A stretch of 62,635 nt of DNA, filler included, from Globobulimina sp. (lineage: Eukaryota): NCBI GenBank assembly GCA_003354225.1. It is 37 parts of 37 records of this genome, joined end to end, with 100 filler letters (N's around TTAATTAATTAA, not from the genome) between each part and the next. Parts side by side here need not be neighbours in the genome. Positions count along the whole stretch, not along the records: positions 27,143 to 28,737 come from PIVH01014351.1; 36 more parts are not named here. One strand, 5' to 3'. The translations under genes and the position numbers were made by a program. This document shows, piece by piece, positions 25,348 through 60,867 of the stretch (the first letter of the stretch is position 1; each line of letters opens with the position of its first letter). Under the pieces are notes generated by a model. That model had not been told where the DNA came from. It made no database searches and was given only the letters and a program-made list of their open reading frames with translations.

Positions 25348-25786
25348 NNNNNNNNNNNNNNNNNNNNNNNNNNNNNNNNNNNNNNNNNNNNTTAATTAAT
25401 TAANNNNNNNNNNNNNNNNNNNNNNNNNNNNNNNNNNNNNNNNNNNNCTTTGTTTTTGGAAATGAAACAATGTTTTTAGTGCATTTAAATGTAGCCATTC
25501 ATCGCTTTGTTTTGACAAATCATTCAATTTAATGTTTGTTGGGAGATATTCCATTGTTTGGAGATATATGGTTTAATTAATTTATATTTAATTATTGAAT
25601 CTGGAAATCTCATAATTCAATGAAAACTCGCGAGCGACATACTTGCTGTCATTTGTAAACTTGCTGTCATTTTAATATTCGAATTCTTGTGCTACAAAGT
25701 TTAAATTACAAACTTCTTAAAATAATTAGAGACATGTTTAATTTTTCCATTTATAAAAAAACCGTCAACGCTCAGCCTCCGTCATC

Positions 25787-26967
25787 ATGTCCACAGAAAC
25801 TAAACAGGCTCCGTTGCCATCAGACGTAAAAATTGATATTAATGCCAGAGAATCACTCCCGGTGGCACCCGAACTGAAACAATCCGATAAAACAGCTGAA
25901 ATTGAAAATAAATTACAGAAAGAATTTGTGGATGATGTTGAAACCGCCAATAAAAAAATAACTCAATTTGTGCAGCAATTACAAAAATCAAAATTTACAG
26001 TAGTTTTCTCCGGAGCTGGAATATCTACAAACACCAAACGTTTGGCAGACTTCCGTGGGGATAACGGTCTGATATCAAATAGGCCGCCATTGGTCCAAAT
26101 GGGCATTGCAGAAACAAAAATGGGTATATTTATATTTGAAATAATTTTGAAAATTAAACTCCATTTTATTGCATCCATAATTCCATTTATACAGATTCCA
26201 TAATGCCGACATTTACGCATTTTTGTATACAAATATTGAAAGACGCTGGATTTGTGGATAAAATTATCACTTCAAATCATGATGGTTTGCACAATAAAAC
26301 AAACATTCCAAACGGAGATATTATCGATTTATTTGGAAACGTTTATGTTGAAAAGTGCAGAAAATGTAAAACAAGATACGTTCGAAAGTCTGTAGTCTCT
26401 CATTTACATCGCAAATGCGATAAATATCCGCAATGCAAAGGCAAACTACAGAGAGAGAAATGTGATATGGGCAATACCGTAAACGCAAAATATTTACGAA
26501 AGGCAGAAGAGATTGCGGCCGAATCTACGTTGTCATTGGTTTTAGGGAGTTCGATGACAATTTTTCCATTTTGCGACTTGCCGCCAAAAGCAAGACATTA
26601 TGTTTTGGTCACTCGGCAAGAAACGGATTATGATAAATGGGCGTTGCTATGCATTCATATGGATGTTGATGAGTTTTTGTTTGGTGTTATGAAGGAATTA
26701 AAGTTAGATACAGATTGTAAACGGTTTGTATATAAACAAGTATTTGAGTGCGGTGTGACTGTTATTTCTAGCAATGATATGATTCGATTTGAGTTAAAAT
26801 CGCAGCAAATAAATGAAGGATTACCATTCATTCAAAGTGGTTGTATTCAAATTGTAAAAGAAAAAGAAAATAATGAGATCAAAGAAAATGTAGAGAATAA
26901 CTTAAGAGGGTACGAGACCCTGGAACCCTTGGGAAAAAACGTTCTGCAAATGCGAGTGCAAAGATAA
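25787..26967 (+). CDS. Sirtuin (SIR2 family, SIRT6/7-like) lacking the canonical catalytic His (intron 26124-26194)
   Basis: SGAGIST..ADFRG.NG, PTFTH, TSNHDGLH, DLFGN..EKCRKC..CDKYPQC, LVLGSSM. Confidence 0.88.
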
Positions 26968-27142: not shown

Positions 27143-28705
27143 CGCGCAAATCATCAAATATCGTCAATTTCTGTATCGATTTATAATCACTTAAAGCATC
27201 ATCTTCTTTCTTTCGGTTAAATTGTGGCAAATTTAACACTGCTTTCACATCAAATAATTTTCTATTATCCTTCAAATTATTTGGATTCTCAATCAATTTC
27301 ATACCATTATCTCCGCCCAATAAAACGAGTAAATCCGGCTGCAAATATCGAATAATATCCGCATTGCCTGAAGCTAAGACAAAATTACTTGTTTTATTGT
27401 TATATTTGCTCTTAAATTTCCTGATACATTTACTTGCCGCAGCACTCATACATCGCGCATTGGTCCTATCCAATACAGAGGTAAACTCATCCATTAATAT
27501 GATGCCATTTGGTTTACTGATACTTTCTTGCAATAATCTCGCAAAAGTTGACTTATATCTTTCGCCGGCACTCAAAATATGGTAAGGTTTCAACCACGTT
27601 CTGATATTATTTAATCCGATACTGCTCATAATATCCATTGCTGTCTCAATGGGAATGCCATCAAATTCAGATATTACACATTTATTGCGATGCCAGTGTA
27701 GATGGTCGGGGTTTTTAAACGTAATTAAAGATGGATTTTGTGCTTGTAATGATTTCAACAATGTCGATTTACCGCTTCCTGACGGTCCTACTATTAAAAT
27801 TAATGGATATTTCTCAATTTGCTGTAAGTTTAATTGACGCAAAGGTGCTTGCAATACATTTTCGGGAACCGCAGATAACTTACAATATGCTAATAATTCT
27901 GCGGTTGTGTTGGAATAATTTGGTATGACTCGATCCATTGACATGTCACTGTTATTATCAATGTCTGCATTAAAATATCTTGAATTTAACGGCGCAGATT
28001 CTTTAATGACAGTTTTTGCACCAAATTCATTTTTCTTTTTGACTTTTTCTCTTCTTTTTGCCACCAAATATCTGGAGTACTTGAATATTTTTGCTCTGTC
28101 AAACTTTATATGTTTTCGTTTGCCAATTTCTGTACAGAGTTTGACCAAATATTTATTAGTTGTAATCACTTCACCTCTCCGCACAGTGATGATAGATTTC
28201 GCAGATTTTGAATCTTTTACTTTGACAGTGACCCATTCATTATCTAATGAGCGTACATTGGTAACATCCTTACTCAGTCTTTGTGTGATTGTGGCGTCAT
28301 TATAGGCCCATAAAATATATTTGATATCAATGTTGGATAAGATAATATTTGTATGCTTTCTTGTTGTGTTTTTCTGACAGAGCCAGATATCTCCAGTTTC
28401 CTCATTGTTTACGCTGACTGGAATATATGTCTTCCAATACTTTGAGCCATTTGGTTTAATATAAAGATATGGTTTGTGCGCATGCGTTGAATTACAGATT
28501 GCGGTCAATGAGGTTCCATTTGTGCCAAAGTCGTAATTAATATTAATGTTGTCATTGTTTTCAGATTTAAGGGAGGCAAATAATACACATTTTGCAGAGT
28601 GATGACAATCTGATATTAGTATTGTAATTAATATGTGAATTCCGATAAAAACATAAAAAAAAAAAAAAAAAATAACGTTAACCAAAAACGAACAGAACTA
28701 GATTT
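27143..28705 (-). CDS. Multidomain protein containing a COG2401-like soluble ABC-ATPase; both ends partial (intron 28610-28682, 23-nt micro-exon 28683-28705)
   Basis: GPSGSGKST (27762-27788), SIGLNNIRTWLKPYHILSAGERY..FAR, MDEFTSVLDR..A, DIIRYLQPD; no TM domain. Confidence 0.8.
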
Positions 28706-28859
28706 CTTTAAATATTTTTTTATAAACAAAAAAAATANNNNNNNNNNNNNNNNNNNNNNNNNNNNNNNNNNNNNNNNNNNNTTAATTAATTAANNNNNNN
28801 NNNNNNNNNNNNNNNNNNNNNNNNNNNNNNNNNNNNNACACTCTTACAGTGCAGTGCCG

Positions 28860-28995: not shown

Positions 28996-29523
28996 TATAT
29001 GGTAATAGCTAACTGGATATCAAACAGCGGCACTTGTCAATACCATCATGCAGATTATAGCTTATTAATTATTATATTATATTGCTTCATGATTCTTAAG
29101 CCCGGTTCTCACCACGGAATAAGGAATAGGAATAAGTATGATTAACACTTTTACTACCATATAAAAACACTTTTCTTATTCCGTAGTGTTTTAACTTCCT
29201 TATTCCGTGGTGTGAACCGGGCTTGACTGAGCTGCATGCTTCATTGCTTCGTTTAAATCGTTTAACCGAAAATCGTCAAATTCTTTCAAAAACAGCCATA
29301 CTTAGGCCAAAATAACAATTTATGGTAACAGTTACCATATATGGTAACAGCTAACTGGATATCAAACAGCAGCACTTGTCAATTACCATCATGCATATTA
29401 CTATTACTAGCTTATTAGATTATATTGCTTCATGATTCTTACAGAGCTGCATGCTTCATTTAAATCGTTTAACCGAAAATCGTAAAATTCTTTCGAAAAC
29501 AGCCATATTTAGGCCAAAATAAC
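28996..29523. repeat. Diverged tandem duplication of a ~190-bp unit
   Basis: TATATGGTAA.AGCTAACTGGATATCAAACAGC...AAACAGCCATA.TTAGGCCAAAATAAC occurs twice; the first copy carries a MITE. Confidence 0.9.
29099..29223. mobile_element. 125-bp MITE, PIF/Harbinger-like
   Basis: 28-bp TIRs AGCCCGGTTC(T/A)CACCACGGAATAAGGAA with one mismatch; 3-bp TSD TTA/TGA; empty site GATTCTTACAGAGCTGC in the neighbouring duplicate. Confidence 0.9.
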
Positions 29524-44580: not shown

Positions 44581-45687
44581 TTAAAAGTCTTCCTCATCGC
44601 CATCCTCTTCCTCCTCATCTCCATCTTCATCCTCATCTCCATCTCCATCTTCGTCCTCATCTTCGTCATCATCATCTTCATCGTCATCCTCTTCCTCCAA
44701 ATCGACCACAGCGTCCTGTTTATCCTGATACTCTGTAATCAAATCACGTACATTTTTGTCCGCCTCTTGAAATTCCATCTCGTCCATTCCTTCGCCTTTA
44801 TACCAATGCAAAAACGCCTTTCTTTTATACATCTTGGCGAACTGCGCAGAAATCCTCTGGAATACGCCTTTGATGGCAGTCGTGTTCGCCACAAACGTGC
44901 CAGACATCGTAGTGCCCACCGGAGGGATGCCGATAATGGACGATTTAATATTGTTTGGGATCCAAGTCACGAAATCATCGGCCATCTTCTGTTGGATTTT
45001 CGCCACTTCGTCGTCCACTTCTTGCGTGGCGATGGAGCCTCGATAACCACACGAAGCGGTCAAATATTTGCCGTCTTCGGCTTTGACGTTGGATAAAAAG
45101 TTGCGAGAACTCCACATTTGGTCCGTCAATTCTTGCACAGTCAATTTCACTTTGGAGCCCTGTCCAGGCGCAAATAATGGCGCTTGTGCCAATAAAAAGA
45201 AATGTAAACGCGGGAAAGGCACTAAATTGACACCCATTTTACGCAAATCTCCATTTAATTTGCCACTGAAACGTAACGACGCAGTGATTCCAGACATAAC
45301 CATCGAAATAACCCAATTCAAGTCGGCATATTTGGGCTCTTTTTGCTTTAATACGTTGTGCGAGATACTGAACAATGCCTCGTTGTCAATCACGAAGGTC
45401 TCGTCTGAATTTTCTAATAATTGATGGATGGATAAAGTGGCGTTATATGGCTCGACCACCACATCTGACACTTTTGGGGAAGGATAGACACTGAACGTCG
45501 CAGTGATGCGGTCGGGATAATTATCTCTGATTTTTAGTAATAACAAGGTTCCCATACCACTGCCGGTACCGCCACCGATGGATTGCGTCAATTGAAAGCC
45601 TTGCGGACAATCACAGCCTTCAGTTTCGCGACGGATAATGTCTACGGCTTCATCGATTAATTCAGCCCCTTCGGTATAATGCCCTTT
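44581..45687 (-). CDS. TUBB: Divergent beta-tubulin (Retaria beta-2 type), 5' partial
   Basis: [65 protein letters not shown], very long acidic tail. Confidence 0.96.
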
Positions 45688-53206: not shown

Positions 53207-54162
53207 TTAAATAAATGGAGGTTTTTTATTCAATTTGAAATGATTGACAGAATCCGGATCAATTTTGGACAATGATTGCTTAAATGGTTTCAATTTATTG
53301 TCAAACTGCGTGGGTAATATTTTGAGACCAGTTTCAAACTCCGCTTTATTCAAATCATAACAAAATTGCTGCAATTCTTTCAAATCATACACAAAGTCCG
53401 CAAATGTCTGATAATGTTTATCGTGAACTTTCTGTCTGATTTCATACAGCGCCAAGGGCACATTTTCTTGATTCAATTGCAATGCACTCAGACTATTGAA
53501 CGACGACTTGAATGCATCCAAAGTCGGCGCATCCAATATGCCATTAATCAGCTTATTTAATATCGGCTGCAAATCAAATGTCATATAAGTTGCGTTAACC
53601 TCCGCGTCCAAGGACTCTATCACCACTTTGTACTGCCTCTGCATTGAAGTCACCTGTTCCACGATGGTCGATGCCAAATGTGTGAAATTGGAGGAGACGC
53701 CGTTGAACTTCGCCGAATTACTATGCAATAATTTGATGTCTGCTTTGAAGGCCTCAAATGTTTTATATTCCTTTTTATCCGGTTTGCCCGCACCGCGCAC
53801 AATATCTATTTTCGGCAAATCCATCAAATTATTCTGCGACAATGCAGCTTTGTACGGCGCTTTGATGCATTCCTCCGTATATTGGATGTTTTGCTGAATC
53901 CAGTCCAAACACATCGGCTCTGACACCCTCGAAATGTATCCATCCAATCGGGTCGGATCCAACTTAAATGTCACCGAACCATTCACATTCTTGGCTTTCT
54001 CCATAATGTGTTTCAACACAGCCACCAGATTCAAGCGAGGATCATTGATCCCGTCGTTATTGTCGCCAATTTTGTATTTCTTCTTTTTGCCTTTCTTGTG
54101 GCCCTTTCCTTGCATAAAGGCACTGCGATAGCTTTTGTGTTTCTTATCGATGGCTCGCTCAA
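53207..54162 (-). CDS. Tandem bromodomain protein C-terminus (TAF1-like)
   Basis: GYISRVSEPMCL..I..N, YKTFEAFKADIKLLHSNSAKFNG; second degenerate copy PLALYEIRQKV...YQTFADFVYDL. Confidence 0.7.
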
Positions 54163-54303: not shown

Positions 54304-54385
54304 TCATCACCGTATGATTCGAACCTACGGGCATTTGGTTTGCTTTCCATTCAAACCAATGCTCTGCCAATTGAGCTATGTGCTC
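54304..54385 (-). tRNA. Degenerate tRNA-like sequence (possibly Phe-GAA derived; pseudogene)
   Basis: TAGCTCAATTGGCAGAGC D-arm/A-box, TTGGT..ACCAA anticodon stem with 15-nt loop, GGTTCGAAT T-loop/B-box; acceptor stem has three mismatches. Confidence 0.55.
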
Positions 54386-59347: not shown

Positions 59348-60867
59348 AGGCCAAGCCGGTTCCAGCTCGACCTTTGCCGCCTCCACAATGTACCAATACA
59401 GCTTTATTCCGTACAAATATGCACTGCTCCGCTCGTTTTATAAATCTTTCAACATCAAACAATTTCGGTGCTTTATAATTTGCTGTTTTCAAGTGAATGC
59501 ATTTTAGATTCTCGCTGTTAATCGTTTTTAAAATATGGCTTGGCAATGCATCATGAAACAGGGTGACAATAAGACCAATATTCATGCTTTCAAATGTTTT
59601 TAATTGCTCCCCATGTTTGGGTATGGAACATGCACAAAGCCAGCCATCCACTAACCAGCTGAAGTTGCGCGGCAATACTGTTTCATGCCAGGTTAGATTT
59701 TCTGGGATTTCGCCATTGTGTATGCTGTCGGTTGCATATTTTATGGATATTCTGATGCGTGGACTCAATGCAACGCATAATATTTCTTTTCGACATTTCT
59801 CAATACCTTTTTTCATCCGTTCAAGCCATATTTTCTCTTTTTCACCAAACAATGATGACAATCTTTGCTGTGCAAACTGCACATTCCCATCACCTTTGGC
59901 ATTCCAATACAAATTTAGTATTTTTTCACTTAAACGAAATAGTTCCGACGCTTCTCTGTGGTGATTATTTTTTTTTTTTATTTACTTCACTGAAAACTGT
60001 AAATTAATCACTTAACAATGGCCTCTTCATAGCCAGCAAAGCAATGCCTTGCGATATTAGAGCTGGTACATAAAATTCATCCATTTTTAATATTTGTAAA
60101 CAGTCATTTAAACAATCATTAAATTGTTGGTTTAGTCCGAATACAGTTGTTCGAAATAATAACACTTTACATAACATTCCGTTTTTGTTTATAGATTCGA
60201 CATTCATTAACTGAGAGATTAATAATTCCAATATGTGCAGTAAAATTTGAGTATCTTTTTTTATCGAATATTTTTTGGTAATTTCAAACAAGGCAACACA
60301 GTGAAGATAATCTGTTTGTTTTGGCAATATTGTTTCTATGGATTTATTTACATTTAAATGCAAATCCTTTGGATGGAAAGCAAGCGTAATATGTGGATAA
60401 AATGCATTGTTTGATAATTTTAAATTGCGTCTCAATCGAAATGTTTGTGGAGCTAATATGACACAGTAATACGCCGTTGATTTTTGTTTTTGTCTTTTAC
60501 CAACGCCCATATTAAGTAAATCAATGTTTTTTATATTTAAAATTTTATTTGCTTTGGATATGATATGATCAATCTTTTTATCTTTTGAATTGAATGATAA
60601 TTCAGGTATCACCTTTTCCATCTCATCTTTTGTAAGCAGAGTGAGATGGAATTGATCGCCATCACGCTTTGTTCTATTGTTGAGAAAATGTTGTGGGATC
60701 ACAGTGCTCTGTGTATTGGTTGCATGATGTTGCAAATATATAAGTCAAACAAGGGGATATTAAACTTTTATGGATTGTTTTGCAATATCATCTATTTTAC
60801 ATCCTTTGATCATAAGGCATCCCTGACAATAAGTTATTGATGCTTCTGCTTTTAATTCTTGTGCCAT
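59348..60867 (-). CDS. 2H phosphoesterase + TPR + dual-specificity phosphatase ('Swiss Army knife' RNA-repair-like), 3' partial (introns 60709-60765, 59956-60016)
   Basis: RDGDQFHLTLL and YPHITLAF (two HxT), TPR-like helices, LPRNFSWLV..ACSIP, VLVHCGGGKGRAGT. Confidence 0.82.

Follow-up and report, generated by a model that had tools for sequence, protein, structure and literature searches.

A putative intron-bearing nuclear gene of a foraminifer-like protist related to the phage ABC-GNAT proteins

An ABC ATPase paired with a GNAT has been predicted to place an acyl group, of a kind not yet characterised, on a DNA base (Iyer et al. 2021, PMC7824862). Another phage enzyme of the GNAT fold, Mom of phage Mu, has recently been described as moving glycine from Gly-tRNA to the N6 atom of adenine in DNA (PMC13219725). 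Here we analyse a eukaryotic relative of the first of these systems, found in a 62,635-base stretch of the Globobulimina sp. assembly GCA_003354225.1, hereafter called the "window". The window consists of 37 unrelated contigs of 1594-1597 bases, sorted by length and separated by N44-TTAATTAATTAA-N44 spacers, and the adjacency of contigs within it carries no linkage information. The gene lies on the minus strand of the contig at positions 27143-28737 (PIVH01014351.1; 1595 bases, G+C 0.33), and the protein translated from this contig is designated P0001. Judged by its sequence, the contig carries one large exon of a eukaryotic nuclear gene, which encodes the middle of a multidomain protein, and the ABC and GNAT parts of this protein family are homologous to phage proteins composed of a single ABC domain and a GNAT. 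Computational work had already described the core family. What appears to be new is the tandem-ABC form that combines reader fusions with an intron; no description of it was found in the literature searched, although the family's founding 2013 paper may mention eukaryotic forms.

Family assignment and domain architecture

The strongest assignment of P0001 is to the PHROG family phrog_11143, which is annotated as "unknown function". The match has an E-value of 4e-36 (125.7 bits) and places residues 262-423 on positions 41-182 of the 357-position profile. In phrog_11143, the ABC domain precedes a GNAT acyltransferase. The 357-aa protein P0004 matches the profile end to end (E=6e-108) and contains a Pfam GNAT domain at residues 214-292, and BLASTP aligns P0001 to P0004 with 40% identity over 163 aa (E=2e-30). 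The initial annotation had assigned the gene to a phage and prokaryote class of ABC-ATPases fused to a GNAT, and the phrog_11143 match, together with the coverage of both domains in P0004, bears this out. The Pfam family ABC_tran (PF00005) also matches P0001, with 30.4 bits against a cut-off of 25 (E=7e-7). Bearing on the COG2401 label of the initial annotation, P0032, the sole protein found with the GNAT preceding the ABC domain, matches P0001 at E=7e-5 only. In the PADLOC scan, P0001 showed only a P-loop-level match to mad3 and mad8; for mad3, a component of the MADS defence system, the E-value is 5e-11 and the best stretch is the P-loop only (residues 262-287 on profile positions 15-41 of 374).

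The first ABC-type ATPase domain, ABC1, occupies positions 27321..27863 on the minus strand, an assignment supported by phrog_11143, Pfam ABC_tran, the similarity to P0004, the tree described below and the counts at alignment columns. The Walker A, signature, Walker B and D-loop motifs follow one another in order. Walker A, GPSGSGKST, lies at 27762-27788; the motif GLNNIRTWLKPYHILSAGE lies at 27561-27617 and includes the signature LSAGE at 27561-27575; the Walker B and D-loop sequence DEFTSVLDR lies at 27465-27491. The H-loop position (27363-27365), located by its alignment column, is occupied by Asn in place of His, and LQPD follows at 27333-27344. Thus, the motifs named in the initial annotation were all located in the sequence, and its statement that a transmembrane domain is absent also held: P0001 contains no membrane helix, the maximum 19-residue Kyte-Doolittle mean being 0.93. 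Downstream of ABC1, the segment at 27144..27320 (minus strand) aligns with the linker between the first and second ABC domains of P0028, P0029, P0030 and P0035. The open frame runs off the contig at 27143 within this linker, before ABC2 and, as first annotated, before any GNAT.

What would follow beyond the contig end can be read from the relatives. A search among longer proteins yielded P0028, a metagenome protein of 940 aa (53% identical, covering 90% of the query), P0029, of 1594 aa and with the source name MMETSP1385 (41% over 99%), and P0030, a EukProt protein of 1233 aa (45% over 58%). An exhaustive HMMER search of 1.84 billion representatives returned 1788 matches at E<=1e-3, of which 515 reached E<=1e-10 and 16 reached E<=1e-30, and contributed P0034 and P0035. 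P0034 (891 aa) possesses a Chromo domain, a Cys finger and the segment hereafter called the "N-domain", and is cut off within ABC1. The closest fragment, P0035 (260 aa), is 70% identical to residues 325-488 and continues into a second Walker A. In the full-length relatives, the layout is (Chromo domain, Cys-rich finger), N-domain, ABC1, ABC2, GNAT, colinear with the exon, and two of these proteins have the bracketed modules. In all of them, ABC2 is followed by a C-terminal GNAT with the sequences ...F-Q-G-I-G-F-G... and ...H-P-R-Y-G..., and in P0028 this C-terminal part aligns to the GNAT half of phrog_11143 (E=9e-11). The second ATPase or GNAT for which the initial annotation had advised a search is therefore present, in both kinds, in every full-length relative (P0028, P0029 and P0030). 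Remoter tandem forms are P0003, an MMETSP transcript, and P0006, from the dinoflagellate Durusdinium trenchii. Past position 27143, contigs from three other sequencing runs, X2, X6 and X8, continue for 443, 1504 and 395 nt, respectively, and the 1504-nt extension in X6 is of the length expected for ABC2 plus GNAT. We regard it as very probable, from these comparisons, that the architecture of the full-length relatives holds for the window gene.

Motif counts over 177 proteins (P0001-P0177) divide the family into two classes. The short class (~360-390 aa) has one Walker A and a GNAT loop ~225 residues further on, and the long class (600-1760 aa) has two Walker A sites and one GNAT loop. For 214 ABC segments we computed a FastTree tree, with 38 segments from another, unrelated twin-ABC family as the root. 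The window ABC is placed beside the first ABCs of P0028 and P0029 (98*). Two clades divide the ABCs of the long forms, one of 57 rows for the first ABCs (support 91) and one of 39 rows for the second ABCs (support 92), and 74 short forms constitute a separate clade (support 90); the node uniting the first-ABC and second-ABC clades is supported at only 60. This topology fits a single duplication of the ABC domain after the split from the short forms. The 214-segment tree does not resolve the direction of transfer. The proposal that the gene was horizontally acquired does not stand in the sense of a recent capture; the gene instead belongs to an old, duplicated (ABC1-ABC2) family with reader fusions in several protists.

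Probable reader modules, ATP sites and the proposed acyl acceptor

The N-domain, residues ~45-170 of P0001, is common only to P0028, P0029 and P0034, and has no match in Pfam. An AlphaFold2 model based on four sequences has a mean predicted local distance difference test score (pLDDT) of 62.9, with blocks of 67-83 over residues 40-160; in it, three strands and a helix come after a five-stranded barrel. In the model, the first half (residues ~45-108; 28287..28478, minus strand) is a small five-stranded barrel of the SH3/Tudor/Sm-like kind, and the second half (residues ~109-169; 28104..28286, minus strand), comprising the three strands and the helix, is chromodomain-like. A Foldseek search of the N-domain against the PDB yielded nothing at E<=1e-3, and its weak top rows include tandem Agenet/Tudor readers. 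With VIA-align, residues ~109-169 match the Rhino chromodomain with Z 6.8 (root-mean-square deviation 3.3, 57 residues aligned), SUV39H1 with Z 6.6 and Oxpecker with Z 6.6, and chromo or chromoshadow proteins account for 26 of the 50 rows listed. Residues ~25-108 match Tudor/Sm-like barrels with Z ~5, including the RDM15 Tudor (Z 5.4) and Hfq (Z ~5). All of these Z values are below the VIA-align caution line of Z 8. The best score of the N-domain in an ESM Atlas search, 0.77, is under the useful range. Past a Lys-rich linker and directly before ABC1, the alignment reveals the conserved motif E-S-A-P-L-N-S-R-Y-F (27972..28001, minus strand), in which E204, A206, P207, N209, S210, R211 and F213 are invariant in all four aligned relatives.

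Recognisable reader domains occur elsewhere in the family. We scanned 56 long forms (P0002, P0003, P0006, P0028-P0032 and 47 others, leaving out the window fragment) with Pfam. Apart from P-loop and GNAT domains, few profiles pass: Chromo is above the cut-off in P0029, P0030 and P0034, WWE in P0119, and a Tudor domain of the PTM/DIR17 type in P0154. Matches to zf-CW in P0030 and SAP in P0003 are under the cut-off, and a looser rescan of nine long forms detected no further reader domain. The reader fusions are thus a feature of the window protein's nearest relatives and not general in the family.

Next, we compared the ATP sites. At the H-loop column, His is present in 74 of the 86 short forms and is preceded by Cys in 77 of the 86. 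It is also present in 31 of 37 second ABCs. Among first ABCs, it is found in only 14 of 38, with Asn in eight and Lys in six. The window ABC1 has Gly-Asn at the Cys-His columns of the short forms, and so differs from a single ABC with a Cys-His H-loop. It retains the Walker A Lys, the Ser and Gly of the signature, and the Walker B Asp-Glu. Many heterodimeric ABC proteins have one impaired ATP site. Since Asn replaces the H-loop His in ABC1, ABC1 and ABC2 probably form an asymmetric pair, in which one site would hydrolyse ATP and the other would be slow or have a regulatory role.

The GNAT of the family was examined in P0004, for which a model from 52 sequences has a pLDDT of 91.5. Foldseek matched this model to 326 solved chains at E<=1e-3, and the matches listed are all ordinary GNATs. 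Those at the top, with TM-scores of ~0.6, are an IAA acetyltransferase, RimI and the acetyltransferase domain of GCN5. The loop Q-G-x-G (Q72, G73, G75) is invariant across the 52 sequences. In GNATs, the Q-x-x-G-x-G loop binds the pyrophosphate of acyl-CoA, and the GNAT of this family is probably acyl-CoA dependent. A PDB sequence search with the GNAT part of the relatives reached only E=0.37. The initial annotation had called the expected GNAT "Mom-like", and this description is not upheld: the relatives' GNAT has no PHROG match to the Mom family, no Mom is among the fold matches listed, and the fold neighbours are generic GNATs.

The phage members of the family occur in recurrent gene settings. 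A tblastn search with P0004 retrieved 68 phage records, Tenacibaculum phage pT24 among them; in 52 records the match covers at least 80% of the query. In the Mu-like Burkholderia phage phiE255 and Pseudomonas phage Komp_PAO1_1, the ABC-GNAT gene stands directly behind the tail-fibre genes, and a formyltransferase (PurN-like) gene downstream overlaps it (L003 2501-4233; L005 2393-4122). In Gordonia phage Jace (L001 2471-4550), the gene has an overlapping ParB-like gene on its upstream side and an aspartate decarboxylase gene downstream, a neighbour that hints at a donor of the beta-alanine type. In Arthrobacter phage EastWest, the overlapping upstream gene is annotated as "DNA binding protein". 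From these partner genes, at five loci, we infer that a DNA-directed enzyme with a non-acetyl donor would suit the phage setting. In pT24 (L002 2857-4029), the ABC-GNAT is annotated as two "ABC transporter ATP-binding" genes of 762 and 342 nt, and the gene may be split or mis-called.

On this basis we propose the following mechanism. ABC1 and ABC2 would pair head to tail within one chain, like two copies of the phage protein. ATP binding would close the ABC pair on a nucleic-acid or chromatin substrate and offer the substrate to the GNAT, which would then transfer an acyl group by means of its Q-x-x-G-x-G acyl-CoA loop. The Chromo, finger and N-domain modules would steer the enzyme to marked chromatin. 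That the architecture holds and that it serves ATP-gated acyl transfer to DNA or chromatin is, in our judgement, an evenly balanced proposition.

For the acyl acceptor, a DNA base is our leading candidate, held tentatively and at somewhat under even odds, and it would imply that eukaryotes have a new kind of base modification linked to histone marks. The fuller scenario is a speculative one: in foraminifera and several other protist lineages, a phage enzyme of DNA hypermodification would have become a writer that is guided by chromatin and acylates a nuclear DNA base, with the Chromo, Cys-finger and N-domain modules acting as histone-mark readers that steer an ATP-gated twin-ABC clamp. If true, eukaryotes would possess an epigenetic DNA mark of a hitherto undescribed type.

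A histone or other protein is a possible acceptor, though a less likely one than DNA. With the same architecture, the GNAT could acylate histones or other chromatin proteins as a reader-guided, ATP-gated protein acetyltransferase, a reading to which we assign a little over a quarter of the probability. Fusions to Chromo, Tudor and WWE domains are typical of histone-modifying enzymes, and the closest folds to the GNAT model, at E~1e-6, include RimI and the GCN5 histone acetyltransferase domain. Set against this, the core is common to phage proteins (68 records), and phages have no histones; the phage gene adjoins ParB-like and DNA-binding genes as well as small-molecule enzymes; and the published prediction, in the accessible part of its text, names a DNA base (PMC7824862). 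None of these three points is decisive. If a histone is the substrate, the protein would represent a new ATP-gated class of histone acyltransferase.

RNA is an improbable acceptor. TmcA and NAT10 are ATPase-plus-GNAT enzymes that make N4-acetylcytidine, and the acetylation of tRNA or rRNA in their manner would follow the same logic of a P-loop ATPase joined to a GNAT. However, the protein has an ABC-type ATPase instead of a helicase, the Pfam scans found no tRNA-binding or DUF1726 module, and the Chromo fusions point to chromatin.

Several observations weigh against an ATP-gated, reader-guided acyltransferase acting on DNA or chromatin. The Tudor/chromo-like fold of the N-domain, which we regard as weakly suggested, depends on a Z of 6.8, a pLDDT of 62.9 and four sequences. 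Reader domains above the cut-off occur in only five of the 56 long forms (Chromo three, WWE one, Tudor one). The nearest folds to the GNAT are protein and small-molecule acetyltransferases, which would fit a protein substrate equally well. ABC2 and the GNAT lie off the contig, and their presence in this gene is deduced from the relatives and from the contig extents in other runs. For most representatives, the equation of "long form" with "eukaryote" is an assumption, as the source library carries no names. No run recorded as RNA carries the stretch, and splicing is thus inferred rather than observed. Finally, the literature contained no tested activity, as far as we found, for any member of the ABC-GNAT family.

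Exon boundaries, nuclear origin and host

The minus-strand frame 28697->27144 is open over 518 codons and is still open at the contig end. It enters from a stretch at 28610..28737 (minus strand) that we interpret as the 3′ part of an intron: this stretch is AT-rich and has a run of ~20 T ahead of an acceptor AG at 28611-28610, and its 5′ end lies off the contig. Similarity to P0029 and P0034 in tblastn begins at 28607, one codon past the AG, in the middle of their Cys-rich fingers (...W-F-C-P-Y-C-I-H-S-A-Q-C-V-L-F in P0029 and ...W-F-C-P-W-C-C-H-T-A-H-C-V-L-F in P0034). The exon start, 28578..28609 (minus strand), encodes C-H-H-S-A-K-C-V-L-F, the last residues of this zinc-finger-like segment, which align with ...CPYCIHSAQCVLF in P0029 and ...CPWCCHTAHCVLF in P0034. 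No frame of 28610-28737 encodes finger-like sequence, and the remaining part of the Cys-rich finger, by this alignment, must be encoded by an upstream exon. Consistently, a contig of run X2, with three differences over 700 bases from the window, departs exactly at 28609 and runs on for 80 letters, and a 1695-nt contig of run X6 departs at the same position. The AG at 28611-28610 is therefore a credible 3′ splice site, with the boundary at 28610|28609.

The initial annotation had described a 73-nt GT-AG intron together with a 23-nt micro-exon, and had concluded that the gene is nuclear. The 3′ splice site stands, on the homology boundary, the poly-T run and the contig breaks, and the coincidence of the acceptor with the homology boundary supports a eukaryotic nuclear gene with an intron. 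The micro-exon and the 73-nt length do not stand. A GT at 28682-28681 and the AG at 28611-28610 do bound a 73-nt stretch (28682-28610), beyond which the 23-nt piece occupies 28705-28683. This piece would encode N-L-V-L-F-V-F, where the relatives have ...EDWFCP(Y/W), and we reject it as an exon. The joint 28609->28683 is not listed among the contigs of other runs, a weak negative, since the 23-letter side could escape notice. Most likely, the contig end at 28737 falls inside the intron, with the upstream exons located elsewhere.

Conservation within the exon was assessed from the other runs. Contigs of X6 and X8 are ~94% identical to it, and a 2888-nt contig of X6 has 82 differences over 1384 bases. 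Among the 40 differences listed (59 further), 28 fall at third codon positions, 10 at first and two at second (binomial p=2e-6). Because the differences concentrate on third positions, the frame is open and the motifs are intact, the comparison indicates purifying selection among related organisms. Other runs also contain partial, more diverged copies of the exon. In run X1, positions 27143-27310 are covered by a 417-nt contig at a depth of 72.6 as compared to ~7, a ten-fold excess, and this contig departs from the window at 27310. The diverged partial copies and the high-depth piece suggest paralogues, and the 417-nt contig itself may be a paralogue or a repeat sharing the linker region.

Could the contig be foreign to the host? 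It is very unlikely that it stems from a giant virus, from a phage, from a bacterium or from some other contaminant. In favour of such an origin are the abundance of the core family in phages, the strong fragmentation of the assembly and a contig G+C that spans 0.24-0.47 across the window. However, a splice acceptor sits at the homology boundary, the G+C of 0.33 resembles that of most contigs, the proteins closest to it come from protist transcriptomes and carry Chromo domains, and the tandem-ABC form stands apart from the clade of short phage forms. An IMG/VR scan gave 68 pattern matches, none confirmed; the patterns are lineage-specific, so that the scan is no test of giant viruses. 

A decaying pseudogene, or a dead copy of a repeated element, is equally improbable. 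It would account for the lack of an in-frame ATG in the first ~220 codons, and for the diverged partial copies and the ten-fold-depth piece over 27143-27310. On the other side, the frame stays open for 489 codons past the acceptor, the ATPase motifs are kept, and the differences are biased to third positions; upstream exons would explain the absent ATG. An ordinary eukaryotic ABC protein, whether an ABCE/ABCF translation factor or the nucleotide-binding domain of a transporter, is practically refuted: although ABC_tran passes its cut-off and the best solved chains in a PDB sequence search with P0001 are ABCB6 and ABCE1/RLI (E~1e-4, the best single chain at 9.5e-5), these matches are ~30 orders of magnitude weaker than phrog_11143, the NCBIfam ABC families reach at best 42 bits against a cut-off of 261 (ABC-F, 32.8 against 380), no membrane segment exists, and the orthologues end in a GNAT, so that the grouping with such proteins named by the initial annotation as the outcome that would overturn it was not found.

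The contig appears to be the only one in the window with this gene: tblastn with P0028, P0029, P0030, P0034 and P0035 against all 37 contigs gave matches on 27143-28737 only. Foraminifera possess a beta-tubulin of a divergent kind. Such a divergent beta-tubulin lies at 44584-45687 (minus strand), on a different contig, and is 89% identical to an EukProt/MMETSP1384 transcript with the source name Ammonia, 93-97% identical to metagenome proteins, and only 58-59% identical to animal and dinoflagellate beta-tubulins. Going by this tubulin, the sequence points to a foraminifer or a close relative as the host. The significance of the gene is that a tandem-ABC descendant of a predicted DNA-acylating phage enzyme appears to be a conserved, intron-bearing nuclear gene in a foraminifer-like protist, subject to purifying selection and fused in its closest relatives to chromatin-reading modules.

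Other contigs and comparison with known systems

The remaining contigs of the window contain eukaryotic genes for tubulin, a DHHC palmitoyltransferase, an EF-hand mitochondrial carrier, RCC1 and an Ulp1 protease, as well as for bromodomain, VPS13, CD36 and SIR2 proteins. The SIR2-family deacetylase gene at 25757-26964 (plus strand) is split across two overlapping frames, 25757-26200 and 26158-26964, and probably contains a short intron. The bromodomain protein is encoded at 53210-54160 (minus strand), and a 2H phosphoesterase "Swiss Army Knife" domain at 60007-60744 (minus strand), each on a contig other than that of the ABC gene. The contig at 28838-29500 has no long frame; it contains a direct repeat (ggtaacagctaactggatatcaaacagc...accatcatgca) present twice and a long inverted repeat at ~29090-29230, and it resembles a small mobile element. 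The sole Rfam match in the window is a tRNA gene at 54304-54385 (minus strand), on a different contig; the Rfam scan found no match inside 27143-28737.

How does the window protein compare with the described systems? The nearest counterparts are the protist ABC1-ABC2-GNAT proteins (P0028, P0029, P0030 and P0034, and more remotely P0003 and P0006), which are colinear with it over the whole exon; within this group, the N-domain is common to the window protein and P0028, P0029 and P0034 only. They differ from it in sequence, with 41-56% identity, and no same-species orthologue was found.

The phage ABC-GNAT proteins (phrog_11143) share with the window ABC the sequences GPSGSGKS, GLN-S-P-W-KPY-LS-GE, DEFTS-DR and LQPD, and their GNAT is the same as that of the relatives of the window protein. 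Whereas the phage protein consists of one ABC and one GNAT in ~360-390 aa, the protist form has two tandem ABCs. The window form further departs from the phage form in the loss of the Cys-His H-loop in ABC1, the added N-terminal reader-type modules, the intron and the eukaryotic host.

Mom and the ABC-GNAT proteins are both phage GNAT-fold enzymes that act, or are predicted to act, on DNA bases. Mu-like phages have the ABC-GNAT gene after the tail-fibre genes, and mom occupies a similar place in Mu. In contrast, Mom has no ABC ATPase, while the ABC-GNAT has one attached and keeps the Q-x-x-G-x-G acyl-CoA loop.

ABCE1/RLI and the ABC-F proteins likewise have two ABCs per chain and no membrane part, and the ATP sites are probably asymmetric there as in the window family. 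Their similarity to the window family is at the level of the superfamily (E~3e-4); unlike them, the window family has no FeS or linker domain of their kinds and ends in a GNAT.

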